Shown here one piece after another: positions 1,521-63,904 of a stretch of 64,000 nt of DNA. The position numbers and the translations under genes are program-made. The number at the start of each line of letters is the position of its first letter. The first letter of the stretch is position 1. The DNA lies in NCBI GenBank assembly GCA_000996205.1, contig LBYO01000006.1, positions 1,969-65,968 of the forward strand. The letters are read 5' to 3'. The notes beneath the pieces were generated by a model. That model did no database searches, was not told the DNA's origin, and was given only the letters and a program-made list of their open reading frames with translations. Source of the stretch: Parcubacteria group bacterium GW2011_GWA1_40_21. GTDB lineage: Bacteria; Patescibacteriota; Minisyncoccia; Phycocordibacterales; GWA1-40-21.

Positions 1521-1699
1521 TTTCTTTTTCCTTAACCTACCACCTATCACCTACCACCTTCTGCCTGCTATTGCGTAAAAAATGGCTTAATATATAATAC
1601 TCGGAGGCTTAAGTCCTGCGGAAATCATTTTTTGCGGGATGAATTAAAAGAGTAAAATCGGGTCGATTCATTATTAAGTTTAAAATTTAAAAATAACAA

Positions 1700-1819
1700 G
1701 GACTTGCGCATTTGGATGCAGTTCGAGGCGCGAGCGAGGCTTGCGACCAAGCTGTATTATTATACTGCGCGGGAGCAAACGAGCGAAGCAACGAAGAAAT
1801 GCGCCGAACGCGCAAGTCC
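1700..1819 (+). repeat. 120-nt structured repeat element, copy A (5' UTR of hup)
   Basis: Terminal inverted repeat ggacttgcgc...gcgcaagtcc; second copy of identical length at 24466-24585 with conserved ends and covarying closing stem. Confidence 0.6.
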
Positions 1820-1830
1820 TAAAAAATAAT

Positions 1831-2103
1831 ATGAATAAACAAGGCATAGCAGAAGCAGTACACAATGTTCTAAATGGAACTAAAGTTCAAGCAGAGCAAG
1901 TGGTAGACACAGTTTTTGATTCAATCGTTAATTCTTTGAAAAAAGGCGAGGAGGTGTCAATCGCCGGAGTTGGTATTTTTTCAGTAAAGCAAAGAGCCGC
2001 TAGACAAGCCAGAAATCCTCGAACGGGAGAAGCGATAAGCGTTCCAGCGATGAAAGTTCCAAAATTCAGAGCCGCCAAAGCTTTGAAAGATTCAGTTAAA
2101 TAA
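1831..2103 (+). CDS. hup: DNA-binding protein HU
   Basis: MNKQGIAEAV...GFGSFSV-like core, RNPRTGE, 90 aa; classical HU/IHF fold signature. Confidence 0.9.
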   Translation: MNKQGIAEAVHNVLNGTKVQAEQVVDTVFDSIVNSLKKGEEVSIAGVGIFSVKQRAARQARNPRTGEAISVPAMKVPKFRAAKALKDSVK

Positions 2104-13201: not shown

Positions 13202-14128
13202 TCAGCTTCGACGGGTGCGGTGAAAATTTTTATGAACATCGCGGAGCTGTTTGTCCGTTACATGGGTGTAGATTTGGGTGGTGGCGATGTTGGAGTGGCC
13301 GAGGAGGGCTTGGACGGAGCGGATGTCGGCGCCGTTGCTTAATAAATCAGTGGCGAAGCAATGGCGGATGACATGAGGCGTGACTTTTTTGGAAATTCCG
13401 GCTTTGATAGCGTAATGTTTGACGATCCTTTCTATTGATCTTGGTGTCAGTCTTAGGTTGTAGGTTGTAGGTTGTAGGTTGTAGGGGGGGGTCCTAACAA
13501 ACAAGGCATCGTCCATATCTTTTCTTTTGTCCAAATAATTTTTTACTGCCGTTTTGGCTTCACTGGAAAGAAAAACAACCCTAATTTTTTCGCCTTTGCC
13601 TCTAATGGAAAATTCGTCCGACTTCAAACTGATGTCTCTTGGCAGGGAACAAAGTTCGGAAACACGTAAGCCTGTGGAAAAAAATAATTCTAAAATTGCT
13701 CTGTCTCTTAATCCCTTTAGCTCGCTAGTGTCTGGAGCATTCATCAGCCGATTAAGCTCCTCCGGCGTGATGAGGTCAAGCGACCTTTCTCCGATTTTCG
13801 CGAGCTCAATCCTCTCCGGAGGCAAAGTTTTAATACCCCGCTTTATCATATACTTCAGAAAAGAACGGAGGGCGATCAAATAATAATTCTGGGTATTTTT
13901 CTTAAGATTTTCCTTTCGGCCGTCAATTGTTTCCCCTGATTCTTGGCGATTCAGCCACAGTCTATATTCTCTCAAAACATCATCAGTAATGCCTTTCGGG
14001 TCATTGAGTTTTGAAAAGTCAAAAAATCTGCTCAAATACCTGTCATAGTTGGCGACAGTTTTGAGGCTTCTTCCTTTCTCAATTTCCAAATGCTCCAAAT
14101 ATTGCCGCTTTAATTGCTCTAGTGTCAT
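13202..14128 (-). CDS. Tyrosine recombinase XerC/XerD-like, with internal repeat insertion
   Basis: C-terminal HVIRHCFATDLL...LLGHSNIATTQIYTHV catalytic box; contains heptamer tandem repeat plus C8 tract at 13455-13491. Confidence 0.85.
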   Translation of the reverse strand: MTLEQLKRQYLEHLEIEKGRSLKTVANYDRYLSRFFDFSKLNDPKGITDDVLREYRLWLNRQESGETIDGRKENLKKNTQNYYLIALRSFLKYMIKRGIKTLPPERIELAKIGERSLDLITPEELNRLMNAPDTSELKGLRDRAILELFFSTGLRVSELCSLPRDISLKSDEFSIRGKGEKIRVVFLSSEAKTAVKNYLDKRKDMDDALFVRTPPYNLQPTTYNLRLTPRSIERIVKHYAIKAGISKKVTPHVIRHCFATDLLSNGADIRSVQALLGHSNIATTQIYTHVTDKQLRDVHKNFHRTRRS

Positions 14129-14351
14129 AAATGTGTAGCCACATTATACTACTGATTAGTTTACAGGTTCTAGTGAATAGGTGTTAACCAAAAGAAGATG
14201 ACAATAATTTTCAATTATCAATTTTCAGTTTTTATTGAATTTCCAATTTCTAAATTTTCAACCTAAAACCTAACCACTAGAAACTAAAACCTGTTTGAAC
14301 GACGAAATGACAATCGCCAGTCGTGCTGATATAATAACTATAATTAAGCAA

Positions 14352-21145: not shown

Positions 21146-21376
21146 ATTTTTGTTTTTGCGGACTTGTTGAAATAAATTCAAATTTATGACAATTTTCTTG
21201 TCAAGTTTTTGAATAAAATAAGGCTCAAAACAAGCCTTTTTTAAAAATATAAAAAATTGTTGATATTTTATTGTTCTTAGGTGTAATCTCACATCAGATT
21301 TGTGATTAGCACATTTACATTAATTTAATTGAAAAACCCTCGTAAAATTTTACTATCTGAAGAATAGAAGAAAGGA

Positions 21377-23991: not shown

Positions 23992-24249
23992 ATGTTTTAC
24001 TACACTTATATTTTAAAATCCTTAAAGGACAATAAAATGTATACTGGTTACACAAAAAATTTAAAATTACGATTTGAGCGGCACAATAAAGGTCTGGTAG
24101 AATCGACTAAAGACAGAAAACCATTTACACTTATGTATTATGAAGCTTGTTTGAATCAGCAAGATGCTACTCACCGCGAAAAATATTTAAAAACTTACAA
24201 TGGAAAGAGGTTTATCAGAAACAGGCTCAAATCGTATTTAACAGGGTGA
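23992..24249 (+). CDS. GIY-YIG nuclease family protein
   Basis: YTYILKS...YTGYT...LRFERHN GIY-YIG signature. Confidence 0.7.
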   Translation: MFYYTYILKSLKDNKMYTGYTKNLKLRFERHNKGLVESTKDRKPFTLMYYEACLNQQDATHREKYLKTYNGKRFIRNRLKSYLTG

Positions 24250-24252
24250 ATT

Positions 24253-25119
24253 ATGAAAAACGAAATTTTAATCTGGAGCGACGGGTCATCAAGAGGCAAT
24301 CCGGGACCGGGAGGGTGGGGGGTTGTAATCGTTTCACCAGAAAAGGAAGTCGTTGAGCTTGGCGGCGGAGAGGAACATACGACGAATAATAAGATGGAGC
24401 TTGCGGGAGCCATTTCCGCTCTCTCTTATGTTGAGAAAAATATTTCTTCAAACCTGAATCACATAGGACTTGAGCAGTTGGATGCAGTTCAAGGCGCGAG
24501 TGAGAAGCGACCGAGCCATACTTCGCAGTATGGTGAGGGAGCATCGGAGCGAAACAACGAAGAAATGCGCCAAATTCTCAAGTCCTATCATATATTGATT
24601 CACACCGACTCAAGTTATGTGATAAACGGAATTACAAAATGGGTGCATAACTGGCGAAGAAATAATTGGCTGACTTCAGAGAAAGAAGAAGTTTTGAATC
24701 GCGATCTTTGGGAAAAATTATTTTCTCTCACTCAAGACAAAAAGATTGAATGGAAATATGTCGCCGGACACAGCGGGACCCCGGGCAACGAAAGATGCGA
24801 TGATATCGCCACGGCATACGCCGATGGAAACAATCCTTCCCTGTACAAGGGAATGCTGGCAAATTATTCCGTTCCGCTTTTTGACCTCTCAAAAGTTTCA
24901 TCGGCGGACAAAAAAAGTAAATCGCGGTCTAAAGCGAAAGCTTATTCATATTTGAGTATGATTGACGGAATAATTATGAAACACAAGTCGTGGGGAGAAT
25001 GCGAAAAAAGAGTCAAAGGCAAAAGCGGAGCGAAATTTAAAAAAGCTTTAAGCGCTGAAGAGGAGGAAGAAATTTTAAAAGAATGGGCTGTAACTGTGAA
25101 TTACAAAACTCCGTTATGA
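24253..25119 (+). CDS. rnhA: Ribonuclease HI with in-frame 40-aa insertion and C-terminal dsRNA/RNA-DNA hybrid-binding-like extension
   Basis: SDGSSRGNPGPGGWG, ELAGAISAL, HTDSSYV, GHSG...NERCDDIA catalytic blocks; C-terminal AYSYLSMIDGIIMKHKSWGECEKRVKGKSGAKFKKALSAEEEEEILKEW resembles the Cauli_VI/dsRHbd fold. Confidence 0.8.
   Translation: MKNEILIWSDGSSRGNPGPGGWGVVIVSPEKEVVELGGGEEHTTNNKMELAGAISALSYVEKNISSNLNHIGLEQLDAVQGASEKRPSHTSQYGEGASERNNEEMRQILKSYHILIHTDSSYVINGITKWVHNWRRNNWLTSEKEEVLNRDLWEKLFSLTQDKKIEWKYVAGHSGTPGNERCDDIATAYADGNNPSLYKGMLANYSVPLFDLSKVSSADKKSKSRSKAKAYSYLSMIDGIIMKHKSWGECEKRVKGKSGAKFKKALSAEEEEEILKEWAVTVNYKTPL
24466..24585 (+). repeat. 120-nt structured repeat element, copy B (in-frame inside rnhA)
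   Basis: Terminal inverted repeat ggacttgag...ctcaagtcc; first 37 nt and last about 30 nt about 90% identical to copy A (1700-1819); identical length 120 nt (40 codons, no stop). Confidence 0.6.
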
Positions 25120-37679: not shown

Positions 37680-37800
37680 GGAAGCAAAGTAGCTTTTTAG
37701 CTTGTAGCTGTTTAGGGAAGATTAGGATTTAGAAAACCTAAAAAGCTAAACAGCTACAAGCTACCTACCTTCTTCAAATTTCTTCCTAAAAAGCTAATAA
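37680..37800. repeat. Gene-boundary inverted repeat cluster (agcttgtagct family) between rpsG and fusA; probable terminator/attenuator
   Basis: agctttttagcttgtagctgtttagg ... cctaaaaagctaaacagctacaagcta ... cctaaaaagctaataagctacaagcta. Confidence 0.5.
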
Positions 37801-37826
37801 GCTACAAGCTAAATAGTTAAAAAATT

Positions 37827-39972: not shown

Positions 39973-40112
39973 TCGCTCGCATTCTCTTTTTAAAAACACG
40001 AATATCCGTCTGCTGATGGATTTCTCTGCTCGTCAATCAAGAAAATAATCAACTTAAGAAAGTTGTTATTTTCTAATTTCCTGCGCAAGGTTTTTAAAAA
40101 GAGAAGGCTTGC
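39973..40112. mobile_element. MITE-like roughly 145-bp element, copy 1
   Basis: About 90% identical to 52031-52180; about 20-bp terminal inverted repeats (tcgctcgcattctcttttaaaaa / tttttaaaaagagaa[t/g]gc); internal hairpin. Confidence 0.5.
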
Positions 40113-40141
40113 TTTAATCGGTAAGAAAAAGAAATTTGAAA

Positions 40142-46154: not shown

Positions 46155-46263
46155 TAAAGAAGCCATCGCGGAATAAATTTCTAATTTCTAATCAAATTCA
46201 AATTTCTTAAACCTACAACCTACTACCTAAAACCTACAACCTTCTTCGCGCGTCTAGTATATT

Positions 46264-52030: not shown

Positions 52031-52180
52031 GGATAACTTTTCGCTCGCATTCTCTTTTAAAAAGCACGAATATTTTCCTGCTGGAAAATTTTTCTGCTCG
52101 TCAATCAAGAAAATAATCAACTTAAGAAAGTTGTCATTTTCTAATTGACTGCGCAAGGCTTTTAAAAAGAGAATGCTCGC
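52031..52180. mobile_element. MITE-like roughly 145-bp element, copy 2
   Basis: See copy 1 (39973-40112); intact terminal inverted repeats tcgctcgcattctcttttaaaaag / cttttaaaaagagaatgctcgc. Confidence 0.5.
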
Positions 52181-52263
52181 TTTTGGCGGTGGAGAATATT
52201 TCTGTTTCCTACAACCTACCACCTAAAACCTACAACCTTCTTCTTGTGTGGTATAGTTTTCCG

Positions 52264-54273: not shown

Positions 54274-54355
54274 TACGAAGAAGGTTGTAGGCGTTAGGTT
54301 GTAGGTTGTAGGTTGTAGGAAGAAAAAGTCAAAGTCATTTCTAAAAATAAATATT

Positions 54356-55249
54356 ATGAACAACTTTTCAAATTTAAAAGCTAAAAAATCGCTCGGGCAA
54401 AATTTTTTGAAATCAAAAAATGCCATTTTTGCGATGATTAAAGCAGGAGATGTGAGTGAGAATGATATCGTGCTGGAAGCCGGTCCGGGCAAAGGCGTCC
54501 TCACGGAAGAATTGCTCAAAAAAGCCGGCAAGGTCATTGCCGTTGAAAAAGACGATATGCTGGTAGAATTCCTCCGCGATAAATTTAAACTAGAAATAGA
54601 AAGTGGGAAACTAGAACTCGTTCACGGCGACATCTTGGAGTTTAATCCCGCAACCTACCACCTACCACCTACCACCTACAACCTTCCCCTCACAACCTAC
54701 AACCTTCAACCTACAACCTTCCCCTCACAACCTACAACCTTCAAACTTATCGCCAACATCCCTTATCACATCACCGGCCAATTTTTAAGAAAATTTCTGT
54801 CCGGCGACATTCAGCCTTCCAAAATGGTGATTCTCCTTCAAAAAGAAGTGATGGAAAGAATTATGGCGAATGACGGCAAAGAAAGCATACTTTCCATAAG
54901 CGTAAAAGCTTATGGCCGACCGAAAAATATCGGCAAAGTTTCCAAAGAAAACTTTTCTCCGAAGCCAAAAGTTGACTCGGCGATACTTCTCATAGACAAT
55001 ATCTCGCGCGATTTTTTCACTTCGTCTGTCCAAAATAACGAAGATAAATTTTTCCAGATTGTTAAAGCCGGTTTTGCTCACAAAAGAAAAATGCTGGCTG
55101 GAAACTTAGAACATTCCAAGGACTCCCTTTGGAAAGGGAGAAACCGAGAGGAAATTGAAAAGATTTTTGAAACTTGCAAAATACCGCCGAAATCCAGAGC
55201 GGAGGATATAAAACTGGAACAGTGGAAGCGCTTAAGTTCCATGCTTTAA
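54356..55249 (+). CDS. rsmA: 16S rRNA adenine dimethyltransferase RsmA/KsgA with roughly 30-aa repeat-encoded insertion
   Basis: LGQNFL, EAGPGKGVLT SAM motif, NIPYHIT; insertion 54649-54745. Confidence 0.9.
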   Translation: MNNFSNLKAKKSLGQNFLKSKNAIFAMIKAGDVSENDIVLEAGPGKGVLTEELLKKAGKVIAVEKDDMLVEFLRDKFKLEIESGKLELVHGDILEFNPATYHLPPTTYNLPLTTYNLQPTTFPSQPTTFKLIANIPYHITGQFLRKFLSGDIQPSKMVILLQKEVMERIMANDGKESILSISVKAYGRPKNIGKVSKENFSPKPKVDSAILLIDNISRDFFTSSVQNNEDKFFQIVKAGFAHKRKMLAGNLEHSKDSLWKGRNREEIEKIFETCKIPPKSRAEDIKLEQWKRLSSML

Positions 55250-62303: not shown

Positions 62304-63107
62304 ATGAATTATAGCGAACAAATATTAAAAGCCAGATTTGAACAGCTTCCAGAGGATGTGAGAAGCGCGATAACGGCTACGCCTTGGAATGAAAAATTAA
62401 AACAGATTTCAGACAAGCACAATCTGCACATAGACCAAGCGGGACATCTCGGAGAAGAAACGGCTATAGTGATGTTCGGTCTTGACCACACCGATAATCT
62501 AGTCGCAAACATTGCCAAACATGTTGAAGTGTCGGAAGAAAAAGCTGAAGCGATCGCGGAGGATTTGAATCGGGAAATTTTCTTGAAGGTGAGGGAGTCG
62601 CTTAAGAAAATATTTGAGGAAAGAGATGAGAGGGCAGGCGGTAGCTTTTTAGCTGGTAGCTTATTAGGGAAGACTGAAGAAAAAGAAAGCGAAACGGAAA
62701 CGGATGAGACCCTGAAAAGGGAAGACATTTTGCGGGAAATTGAGGACAAAGAACATCACAATCTGCCAGCCGTTAACAAGCAAGAACTCCACTTGGAGGC
62801 GAGGCCTCCAAGTGAGATTAGCGCGCAAGTTTCTTTTCAGAACCAAAAGATGGCGGACAGCGCCAAAAGAGACAAACCAGCCGAAATGATTGTTATCCGC
62901 CCCGAACAACCCCAAAGACAACCTGCGATGCCACAAGGGGAAGCAATGAAAACAATGAAGGGCGATATTTTCAAGAACAAGATGAGCGGAACAGTGAATA
63001 TGCCGAGAGAAACAATTGAGATAAATGACGCCAAGACGCCAGCTAAAAAGTTGCCATCGGATATTAGTAATAAAATAGATCCTTATCGGGAGAAAATAGG
63101 AAAGTAG
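62304..63107 (+). CDS. Hypothetical acidic protein
   Basis: 267 aa, highly charged; between VirB6-like and PrgI-like genes. Confidence 0.45.
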   Translation: MNYSEQILKARFEQLPEDVRSAITATPWNEKLKQISDKHNLHIDQAGHLGEETAIVMFGLDHTDNLVANIAKHVEVSEEKAEAIAEDLNREIFLKVRESLKKIFEERDERAGGSFLAGSLLGKTEEKESETETDETLKREDILREIEDKEHHNLPAVNKQELHLEARPPSEISAQVSFQNQKMADSAKRDKPAEMIVIRPEQPQRQPAMPQGEAMKTMKGDIFKNKMSGTVNMPRETIEINDAKTPAKKLPSDISNKIDPYREKIGK

Positions 63108-63303
63108 CTTCTTAGCTTGTAGCTTTTTAGGTAAGAAAAGAATTGAAGTGGAAATTTATCTTTTGGTAAAAATTTAAGTTATACTAAAGAGGAAAGCCTT
63201 TTATCAGAAGTGATGAAGATGCTCAACAAAATGCTTTCTTCTTTAAAAAGTTCTCAACTTTCTTAACCTAAAAAGCTAATAAGCTGCAAGCTAACAAGCT
63301 AGT

Positions 63304-63738
63304 ATGAAATTCCAAGTCCCGCAATTTATTGAAATAGAAGACAAGATATTCGGGCCTTTGACCTTGAAGCAATTTATTTACCTTGCCGGAGGGGGCGGAA
63401 TTTCTTTCGTCATTTATTCCATAATTCCTTACCTTGTCATAGCTTTATTTTTCATCATACCGGTTATGCTTTTCTCTGTTGCTTTGGCTTTCTATAAGAT
63501 AAATGGCAAGCCGTTCATATTCATTCTTGAGTCGGCCGTGAAATACACTTTGAGCAACAAACTTTATCTGTGGCAAAAAAGAGAAAAAGTTATAACAAAA
63601 AAAGACAGCATTTCCAACGACAACTCATCCCTCCTCAAAGTACCTAAACTGTCAGAAAGCAAGCTCAAAGATTTAACTTGGAGTTTAGATATAAATGAAA
63701 ATATCAATCCGATTACGAGAGATAGTAAAAGGTTATAG
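63304..63738 (+). CDS. PrgI-family (VirB3-like) small membrane protein
   Basis: FGPLTLKQFIYLAGGGGISFVIYSIIPYLVIALFFIIPVMLFSVALAFYKINGKPF matches PrgI family pattern. Confidence 0.55.
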   Translation: MKFQVPQFIEIEDKIFGPLTLKQFIYLAGGGGISFVIYSIIPYLVIALFFIIPVMLFSVALAFYKINGKPFIFILESAVKYTLSNKLYLWQKREKVITKKDSISNDNSSLLKVPKLSESKLKDLTWSLDINENINPITRDSKRL

Positions 63739-63904
63739 GTGCTAGGCGTTAGGTTTTAGGGGTTAGGAAAGAAAAGATAAGATTGGGAATATAAAAAATA
63801 TGTTATAATTTTTAAAAGTTGCAGGTTGCTGTTTTACAACTTTCTTCACTCTCGCCCTAAAACCTAACACCTATAACCTTCTTAAAAACCTACAACCTAA
63901 AAAA

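Follow-up and report, generated by a model that had tools for sequence, protein, structure and literature searches.

A stretch of 64,000 nucleotides from the Parcubacteria group bacterium GW2011_GWA1_40_21 (contig LBYO01000006.1; this whole stretch is called the window below) carries two copies of a palindromic element, one (copy A) in the leader of hup and the other (copy B) in frame inside rnhA. Both copies very probably belong to an undescribed family of miniature inverted-repeat transposable elements (MITEs) of about 124 bp that is found in the Patescibacteria, or candidate phyla radiation (CPR), is moved in trans, and occasionally inserts in frame into protein genes much as Rickettsia palindromic elements (RPEs) do. 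The evidence comes from the anatomy of the two copies, from a target-site duplication that recurs across the family, from empty sites in orthologous genes, and from extensive covariation. Comparisons beyond the window draw on 163 fetched DNA stretches (loci designated L###), which were seeded by an exact 23-mer from the core of the element and come to about 1 Mb.

Anatomy of the two copies

The original prediction had placed two copies of exactly 120 nt at the core positions given in Table 1, and both a reading of the sequence and a covariance model agree with it. Covariance model R1, when run over the window, returned exactly 1700-1819 and 24466-24585 and no other match at E ≤ 1, and the two copies align with each other over the full 120 nt. 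A third copy near position 21160, where the string caagtcc occurs, was considered and proved to be a chance match. The conserved ends described for both copies are likewise real, in that the blocks TTGGATGCAGTTC[A/G]AGGCGCGAG and GAGCGAA[A/G]CAACGAAGAAATGCGCC are each present at exactly two places in the window, whereas shuffled sequences give an expectation of 0. The apical hairpins are copy specific, as had been said.

Several details needed correction. The first 37 nt of the two copies differ at four positions (8, 12, 26, and 36) and not at three. The closing stem does contain the compensatory difference noted earlier, A8-U113 in copy B versus C8-G113 in copy A, but its length had been put at 10 bp, whereas copy B has tCTCAAGTCC as its 3' arm, which leaves 9 bp plus a C.U mismatch. 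The 120 nt had also been taken for the whole unit; the mobile unit is larger and includes a TA on each side (24464-24587 in copy B), outside which lies a 5-bp duplication. In copy A, the left flank is AA, not TA, and the target duplication is decayed, with ATAAC on one side and AAAAA on the other.

When folded, each copy forms an imperfect rod, with free energies of −46.7 and −53.3 kcal/mol (z-scores, −4.8 and −5.1), and the opposite strands fold less well. The element is also richer in G+C (53 to 57%) than the window (40%).

Signature of transposition

A TA stands on both sides of the core in 79 of 132 unique copies. When left and right flanks were compared at offsets of 0 to 4 and lengths of 3 to 9, a duplication signal appeared only at offset 2 and length 5, which is just outside the TAs and where 19 of 111 copies match exactly. 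For the full set, the 5-bp repeat is exact in 22 of 132 copies and matches at four or more of the five positions in 40 of 132, while shuffled pairings gave means of 0.52 and 5.0 and maxima of 5 and 14, respectively. The duplicated 5-mers are AT-rich and lack a consensus. The unit can thus be written NNNNN-TA[GGAC...GTCC]TA-NNNNN, and it is bounded by imperfect, TA-ended inverted repeats with the consensus TAGGACTTACGCAnTTGG. Two other ways of drawing its limits were tried and rejected. If TA itself were a 2-bp duplication in the style of IS630 or Correia elements, 120 + 2 nt would break the rnhA frame, and the only signal found is the 5-bp one outside the TA. If the core had been inserted into existing host hairpins, the outer stem would belong to the host; the outer stem is also present within coding regions, however, and follows the family consensus.

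The terminal repeat TAGGACTTACGCA also bounds small elements with different interiors (Table 1), and the occurrence of the same ends on several families implies a shared transposase that acts in trans. Further sites of this type lie at L028:2936-3075, L080:204-335, and L108:656-885. At least two other hairpin families have TAGGACTTACGCA ends, one of them holding TGTCATTCCCGTGAAAACGGGAATCCAG and another GCGTCTTTGCGAGG...CCGAAGCAATCCAGA; neither interior occurs in the window.

From these features we infer the type of enzyme. A transposase acting in trans would make a 5-bp staggered cut in an AT-rich target, and the product would have the form NNNNN-TA[...]TA-NNNNN. Copies would then persist where they do little harm, that is, in short spacers beside start and stop codons and in either orientation. 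Within genes, survival would require that the element plus its duplication be a multiple of 3, that one hydrophilic frame be free of stops, and that the site lie in a surface loop. The rod and its purine-rich internal loops would be kept by selection acting on one strand, either for transposition itself or for some function that the host has gained from them.

Family size and host range

Among GTDB species representatives, 48 contigs contain the core 23-mer, TTGGATGCAGTTCNAGGCGCGAG, and almost all of them belong to Patescibacteria. The hosts comprise Paceibacterota, Parcubacteria, Taylorbacteria, Kaiserbacteria, Yonathbacteria, and many Saccharibacteria, and single metagenome-assembled genomes (MAGs) may hold it in several contigs (8 in one, 6 in another). 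Examples of copy-rich genomes are Parcubacteria Greene1014_15, Paceibacterota SO_2016_GW1_97, and Taylorbacteria RIFCSPLOWO2_12_FULL_43_20. Three MAGs with the 23-mer are labeled Bacteriovoracaceae, Gammaproteobacteria, and Opitutales, and these may be mis-binned. The 23-mer is present in at least 113 metagenome stretches as well, with Hainich groundwater wells as the source of many copies. A search for further copies had been proposed with the original prediction, and it was productive: a covariance model built from 38 copies finds 181 in the window and the 163 loci, in many Patescibacteria and with up to 4 copies per 8 kb.

The typical core is 118 to 123 nt long (124 bp for the unit with its TAs). 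The element lacks a conserved open reading frame (ORF), and its frames vary among copies. Searches of collections of mobile elements and of known RNAs gave no relative. The 23-mer had zero matches in IMG/VR and matched plasmid and phage records at chance level only. At gathering thresholds, Rfam identified four tRNAs in the whole window and no family fitting the element, and the top match of an E-value scan around the element was sR33, whose 10.8 bits (E = 7.2) fall short of the threshold of 37. Full-text literature searches turned up no description of such an element. Elements of this kind are known; what is new is this family, with its range of hosts and its conserved structured core.

In-frame insertions in rnhA and other genes

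Copy B lies in frame and without a stop within the 288-aa RNase H ORF, as originally described, although the insert had been counted as 40 codons and the net gain relative to empty orthologues is 43. RnhA orthologues with at least 88% identity (P0002 to P0005) carry the insert, whereas the insert is absent from P0006 (245 aa; 91% identical across the columns aligned) and from every more distant orthologue. In the DNA of L049 the site is empty, and the sequence on either side of the gap aligns. The length difference of 43 aa, or 129 nt, equals the 124-bp element plus the 5-bp duplication (TCACA/TCATA). Had all RnhA orthologues carried the segment, this was to have argued for ordinary protein sequence; because orthologues at 91% identity and below do not have it, the segment is an insertion. 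Orthologues in L050 and L067 share this insertion, its apical hairpin being replaced by a longer one that adds 39 nt without breaking the frame.

Compared with solved RNase HI structures, query residues 61 to 111 replace E. coli residues 60 to 62 in the loop that joins helix A to strand 4. The AlphaFold model of RnhA has a low-confidence helical excursion from helix A at the insert (predicted local distance difference test [pLDDT] score, 34 to 39). The element and its duplication together (124 + 5 nt) would thus lengthen RNase HI by 43 residues at this point.

The proposed likeness to RPEs gains from in-frame copies in four more genes, all in the same frame. ORF tests of all copies placed the element inside intact genes for UDG (L026), RecG (L061 and L101), RsmE (L115 and L145), and the CCA-adding enzyme (L059), and in these proteins, as in RnhA, Pfam domains are retained on both sides of the insert. 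The intragenic copies are all in sense orientation and all use one frame, which reads G-L-x-Q-L-D-A-V-R/Q-G-A-S-E ... E-E-M-R-Q. Their core lengths (120, 123, 120, 120, and 153) are all divisible by 3, and the hosts are in frame once the 4 nt of the TAs and the 5 nt of the duplication are added. Among the 38 copies of multiple-of-3 length, the used frame is open in 27 and the other frames are open in 9 to 18. That all five hosts share one frame suggests that the hydrophilic peptide also matters. Intragenic copies make up about 5% of the total. A word-indexed peptide search for further in-frame hosts returned 1 match, and phmmer against 1.84 billion representatives returned 5 short ORFs; the ORF tests on DNA yielded much more.

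Structure and covariation

The suggestion that the element is a selected hairpin with a covarying stem is supported by covariation across the family. Standard pairs fill 95.4% of the pair cells across 62 copies, compared with 30 to 47% when partners are slid, and two-sided changes occur in 28 of 32 pairs; none of 500 shuffles reached any of these measures. Of the cells in helix 1, a helix of 23 pairs, 95% are paired; TAGGACTTACGCAnTTGG at one end pairs with CCAAnTGCGTAAGTCCTA at the other. The outer 12 to 16 bp are the most variable part (GGACTTACGC, AAACATATATGC, and GGGCGCACGCAG, each with its exact complement). Divergent copies also covary within the core, where CAGTTC...GAAGAAATG becomes CAGAAC...GAAGTTATG and GCGCGAG...GAAGC becomes AAAAAG...CTTTT. 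G.U combinations outnumber A.C by 84 to 14, with one invariant U.G left out of the count, and this excess identifies the strand as given as the folding strand. The conserved internal loops may be drawn as tandem G.A pairs, judging from the aligned sequences; in L005 and L021, Watson-Crick pairs stand in place of one of them.

Long copies contain additional hairpins at fixed internal-loop positions. A module of about 33 nt (CGTCYACAGGYGC, a 5-bp stem with a 7-nt loop, and GCC) sits inside some copies. It occupies internal-loop positions that mirror each other on the two arms, occurs in both orientations, and may represent either a mini-element nested within the copy or an expansion segment. In other copies, the 5' arm is interrupted between GAGG and TGCGACC by an insert of about 75 nt with three small hairpins, which brings their length to 194 to 211 nt. 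The 3' arm contains an 18-nt hairpin, CCTGCCCGCGCAGGCGGG, in L054, L065, and L101:2161. Two copies, L118:2963-3022 and L110:3283-3340 (minus strand), are truncated to the 5' arm and continue into unrelated sequence after the break, which falls at the apex in L118 and within the 5' arm, after GCGAGCGAGG, in L110.

Alternative explanations

Several results sit uneasily with a MITE that is nothing else. In the approximately 1 Mb of fetched DNA, no autonomous element bounded by these ends came to light, and recurrent genes beside copies in the fetched loci were limited to hup and its neighbor, with no recurring transposase. A recognizable duplication (at least 4 of 5 positions) is seen in just 30% of copies, and the others would then be old or degraded. 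Conservation is higher in the interior than in the terminal repeats, whereas a typical MITE shows the reverse. In this sample, the invariance of the 23-mer is partly circular, since the loci were seeded with it in exact form; this bias does not reach the stems, the 3' core, or copies that the model alone detected. The most telling comparisons are those of copies at shared sites. In the hup trio, that is, the window and two loci occupied at the same site upstream of hup (L010 and L034), the inner 96 nt of the element are 90 to 96% identical (86 to 95% without the seeded 23-mer), whereas third codon positions of hup are 40 to 50% identical and the upstream spacer is 45 to 60% identical; the outer stem has diverged, with compensation. 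In the RecG pair, of which the L101 copy was not selected via the 23-mer, the element is 90% identical compared with 64 to 73% at third positions, and the outer stem shows one compensatory change and one G.U change. Conservation above that of neutral sites points to purifying selection or to repeated homogenization by other copies, and such slow decay at shared sites is not predicted for a purely selfish, decaying MITE.

It is possible, if on the whole doubtful, that the rod is a functional module of structured RNA or single-stranded DNA that was spread by transposition and of which some copies, such as that in the hup leader, are kept by the host, for example for protein binding, processing, or stability. 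This explanation complements the MITE reading and does not exclude it. Core sequence and structure are conserved across class-level lineages, compensatory changes occur even within the core, and the ratio of G.U to A.C is 6:1 in favor of one folding strand. The extra hairpins at fixed internal loops resemble expansion segments of functional RNAs, and both the same-site conservation and the stem changes of the RecG pair would fit. Against this, orientation is mixed (24 antisense versus 11 sense copies in tandem contexts), an internal promoter is not evident, Rfam holds no matching family, and gene conversion among copies could mimic purifying selection. A more specific form of the idea seems rather unlikely, though not fanciful: the rod core, with its tandem G.A-rich loops and covarying helices, would be a new structured RNA or single-stranded DNA module riding on a MITE and adopted by the host as a cis element, for example in the hup leader. 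If true, this would explain the approximately 90% identity at shared sites despite saturated neutral sites, as well as the fixed positions of the extra hairpins.

A strand-specific fold whose hairpin shape is kept while the stem sequence varies would also be expected of single-stranded hairpin elements like those of the IS200/IS605 and REP-RAYT systems, which an HUH (Y1) transposase mobilizes after recognizing the folded DNA hairpin, but the fixed 5-bp duplication and the TA-ended inverted repeats of the present element, together with the failure to see a conserved flanking tetra- or pentanucleotide, make this highly improbable. We give equally little credence to an intervening sequence, intron-like or cut by an RNase, that is removed from the transcript so that its residues are absent from the protein, a possibility raised with the original prediction. 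A long stable hairpin within an mRNA might suggest as much; however, most copies are intergenic and in either orientation, no ribozyme or intron family of Rfam matches, and the intragenic copies, six in all, are without exception stop-free, a multiple of 3 in length, and alike in frame and orientation. Excision from RNA would call for no such limits, and their presence argues for translation of the insert and makes excision at the RNA level unlikely. The rnhA segment is most likely translated rather than removed. Finally, a coincidental local duplication without wider meaning, which a 64-kb window with just two copies might have allowed, can be dismissed outright, given the hundreds of copies in unrelated contigs and lineages.

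Some candidates for an autonomous partner were inspected and rejected. An inverted pair of terminal repeats in L016 was a chance match in ribosomal-protein genes; pairs 0.26 to 4 kb apart also occur in L028, L036, L047, L064, L080, and L118, and L016 was the one inspected. A 1,011-aa ORF beside the copy in L027 is DnaE and not a transposase, and unpaired 5' halves in L110 and L118 that might have been the ends of a partner are the truncated copies described above.

Comparison with known elements

RPEs are palindromic repeats of about 100 to 150 bp in reduced genomes, where they lie between genes and also in frame in housekeeping genes, adding a hydrophilic peptide at tolerated surface sites. 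The present family is likewise a palindromic repeat of a reduced-genome lineage that occurs in frame in intact genes, as tested here. It differs in having Patescibacteria as hosts, in its clear terminal inverted repeats and 5-bp duplication, in its spread over many class-level lineages, and in an intragenic share of about 5%; the likeness is to a functional analogue only. Correia elements of Neisseria and the ERIC/IRU elements of enterobacteria are imperfect palindromes of 100 to 150 bp that lie beside genes and are cotranscribed with them, forming long RNA hairpins. The many gene-adjoining copies in either orientation and the long hairpin recall them, but the sequences are unrelated, and here conservation is greater in the interior than at the ends, and the whole rod covaries. 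Correia elements have TA at their boundaries, and the TA itself is duplicated, whereas here TA is part of the element, with the 5-bp repeat beyond it.

Tn3-derived inverted-repeat miniature elements (TIMEs) and further MITEs that duplicate 5 bp share the non-autonomous state, the bounding inverted repeats, and a 5-bp duplication. The ends of the Tn3 family are about 38 bp long and start with GGGG; those described here start with TAGG, and no Tn3-type transposase was seen in the fetched loci and window. IS200/IS605 elements and repetitive extragenic palindromic (REP) sequences insert beside a short specific motif and have no target duplication or terminal inverted repeats, REP sequences being about 35 nt long. 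Hairpin repeats with a strand-specific fold are common to REP/BIME, IS200/IS605, and the present family, which is set apart by its 5-bp duplication, its terminal inverted repeats, and its much greater length.

Patescibacteria are regarded as extremely streamlined and as holding little mobile DNA. Despite this streamlining, the family is shared from Saccharibacteria to Paceibacteria, reaches 4 copies in 8 kb, and has remodeled at least five proteins of DNA and RNA metabolism. The covariance model and the 23-mer can be used to flag elements, to mend gene calls (spurious ORFs and false N-terminal extensions), and to mark CPR contigs, and the 5-bp duplication and the shared ends (TAGGACTTACGC ... 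GCGTAAGTCCTA) define a hunt for the CPR transposase. A new functional RNA is one possible reason why the interior is better conserved than terminal repeats and synonymous sites. A small transposon of this kind, if active, could serve as a genetic tool in a tool-poor phylum.

Genomic setting and minor observations

Relative to their neighbors, 24 copies are antisense tandem and 11 sense tandem, while 10 lie between convergent and 9 between divergent genes. Copies closely adjoin genes: the stop codon is often a TAG made of the flanking TA and the first G of the element, and downstream start codons often lie 7 to 11 nt past the element. Copy A follows this pattern, ending at 1819 with the hup ATG at 1831, so that the 11-nt gap reported earlier is correct. 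The remark that copy A ends where the ribosome-binding site of hup would be is inapplicable, however. A Shine-Dalgarno-like motif precedes just 6 of the 46 long genes of the window, whose leaders are A/T-rich, and given this scarcity copy A displaces no ribosome-binding site. A TATAAT hexamer upstream of copy A is kept in an alignment of the three hup loci and is possibly a −10 box, as its sequence suggests, which would put copy A in the hup 5' untranslated region; a promoter scan of the hup leader did not call it, because its −35 match covers only 3 of 6 positions.

Table 1. Positions of the elements and of associated features (window coordinates unless a locus is given)
Feature	Position	Strand	Remarks
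MITE copy B, TA + 120-nt core + TA	24464..24587	+	in frame in rnhA; 110.9 bits, E = 2e-26
Core of copy B	24466-24585		120 nt between GGAC...GTCC
MITE copy A	1698..1821	+	sense in hup leader; 139.9 bits
Core of copy A	1700-1819		120 nt between GGAC...GTCC
Left target-site duplication of copy B, TCACA	24459..24463	+	
Right target-site duplication of copy B, TCATA	24588..24592	+	4/5 positions identical to TCACA
Left terminal inverted repeat/5' arm of outer stem, TAGGACTTGAGCAGTTGG	24464..24481	+	partner 24570-24587
Right terminal inverted repeat/3' arm of outer stem, CCAAATTCTCAAGTCCTA	24570..24587	+	
Conserved 5' core, TTGGATGCAGTTCAAGGCGCGAG	24478..24500	+	
Conserved 3' core, GAGCGAAACAACGAAGAAATGCGCC	24547..24571	+	
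Apical hairpin of copy B, CCATACTTCGCAGTATGG	24516..24533	+	subtype specific
rnhA, RNase HI with C-terminal extension, 288 aa	24253..25119	+	Pfam RNase_H, E = 3e-38, two stretches
hup (HU)	1831..2103	+	Pfam Bac_DNA_binding, E = 4e-30; start 11 nt after copy A
TATAAT hexamer	1593..1598	+	upstream of copy A
Other elements bounded by TAGGACTTACGCA	L004:6915-7045; L028:1181-1312; L048:2700-2831; L108:764-885		exact duplication ATATT in L004
Copies with the ~33-nt module	L009:3993-4147; L033:952-1103; L057:3505-3658; L059:3020-3172; L141:1727-1947		
Copies with the ~75-nt insert	L073:4819-5012; L097:1510-1704; L147:692-902; L078:337-535		
7-nt repeat tracts	1526-1571; 13440-13485; 14252-14297; 46202-46247; 52198-52243; 54274-54319; 54630-54745; 63729-63884		
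GTAGCTTnTTAGCTTGTAGCT repeat	1437-1483; 37683-37729; 62635-62681; 63098-63144		inverted at 37737-37819 and 63267-63301

A copy lies next to hup in six genomes. In L048, two tandem antisense copies (2006-2125 and 2205-2324) stand upstream of hup, and the copy at L009:3993-4147 adjoins the hup stop codon. At the rnhA locus, a small GIY-YIG nuclease gene (23992-24249) lies directly 5' of rnhA. The C-terminal extension of RnhA is encoded at 24930-25119, and PF01693, the RNase H1 N-terminal hybrid-binding domain, is also recorded in some homologues.

Many spacers of the window also contain other repeats. Tandem 7-nt repeats (AACCTAC/ACCTACC, complement TAGGTTG) form several tracts, one of which lies just upstream of the putative hup promoter region, and a second spacer repeat, GTAGCTTnTTAGCTTGTAGCT, has a 7-nt period as well and occurs in both orientations. 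A direct repeat of 150 nt (87% identity) is found at 39973-40122 and, 12 kb away, at 52041-52190.

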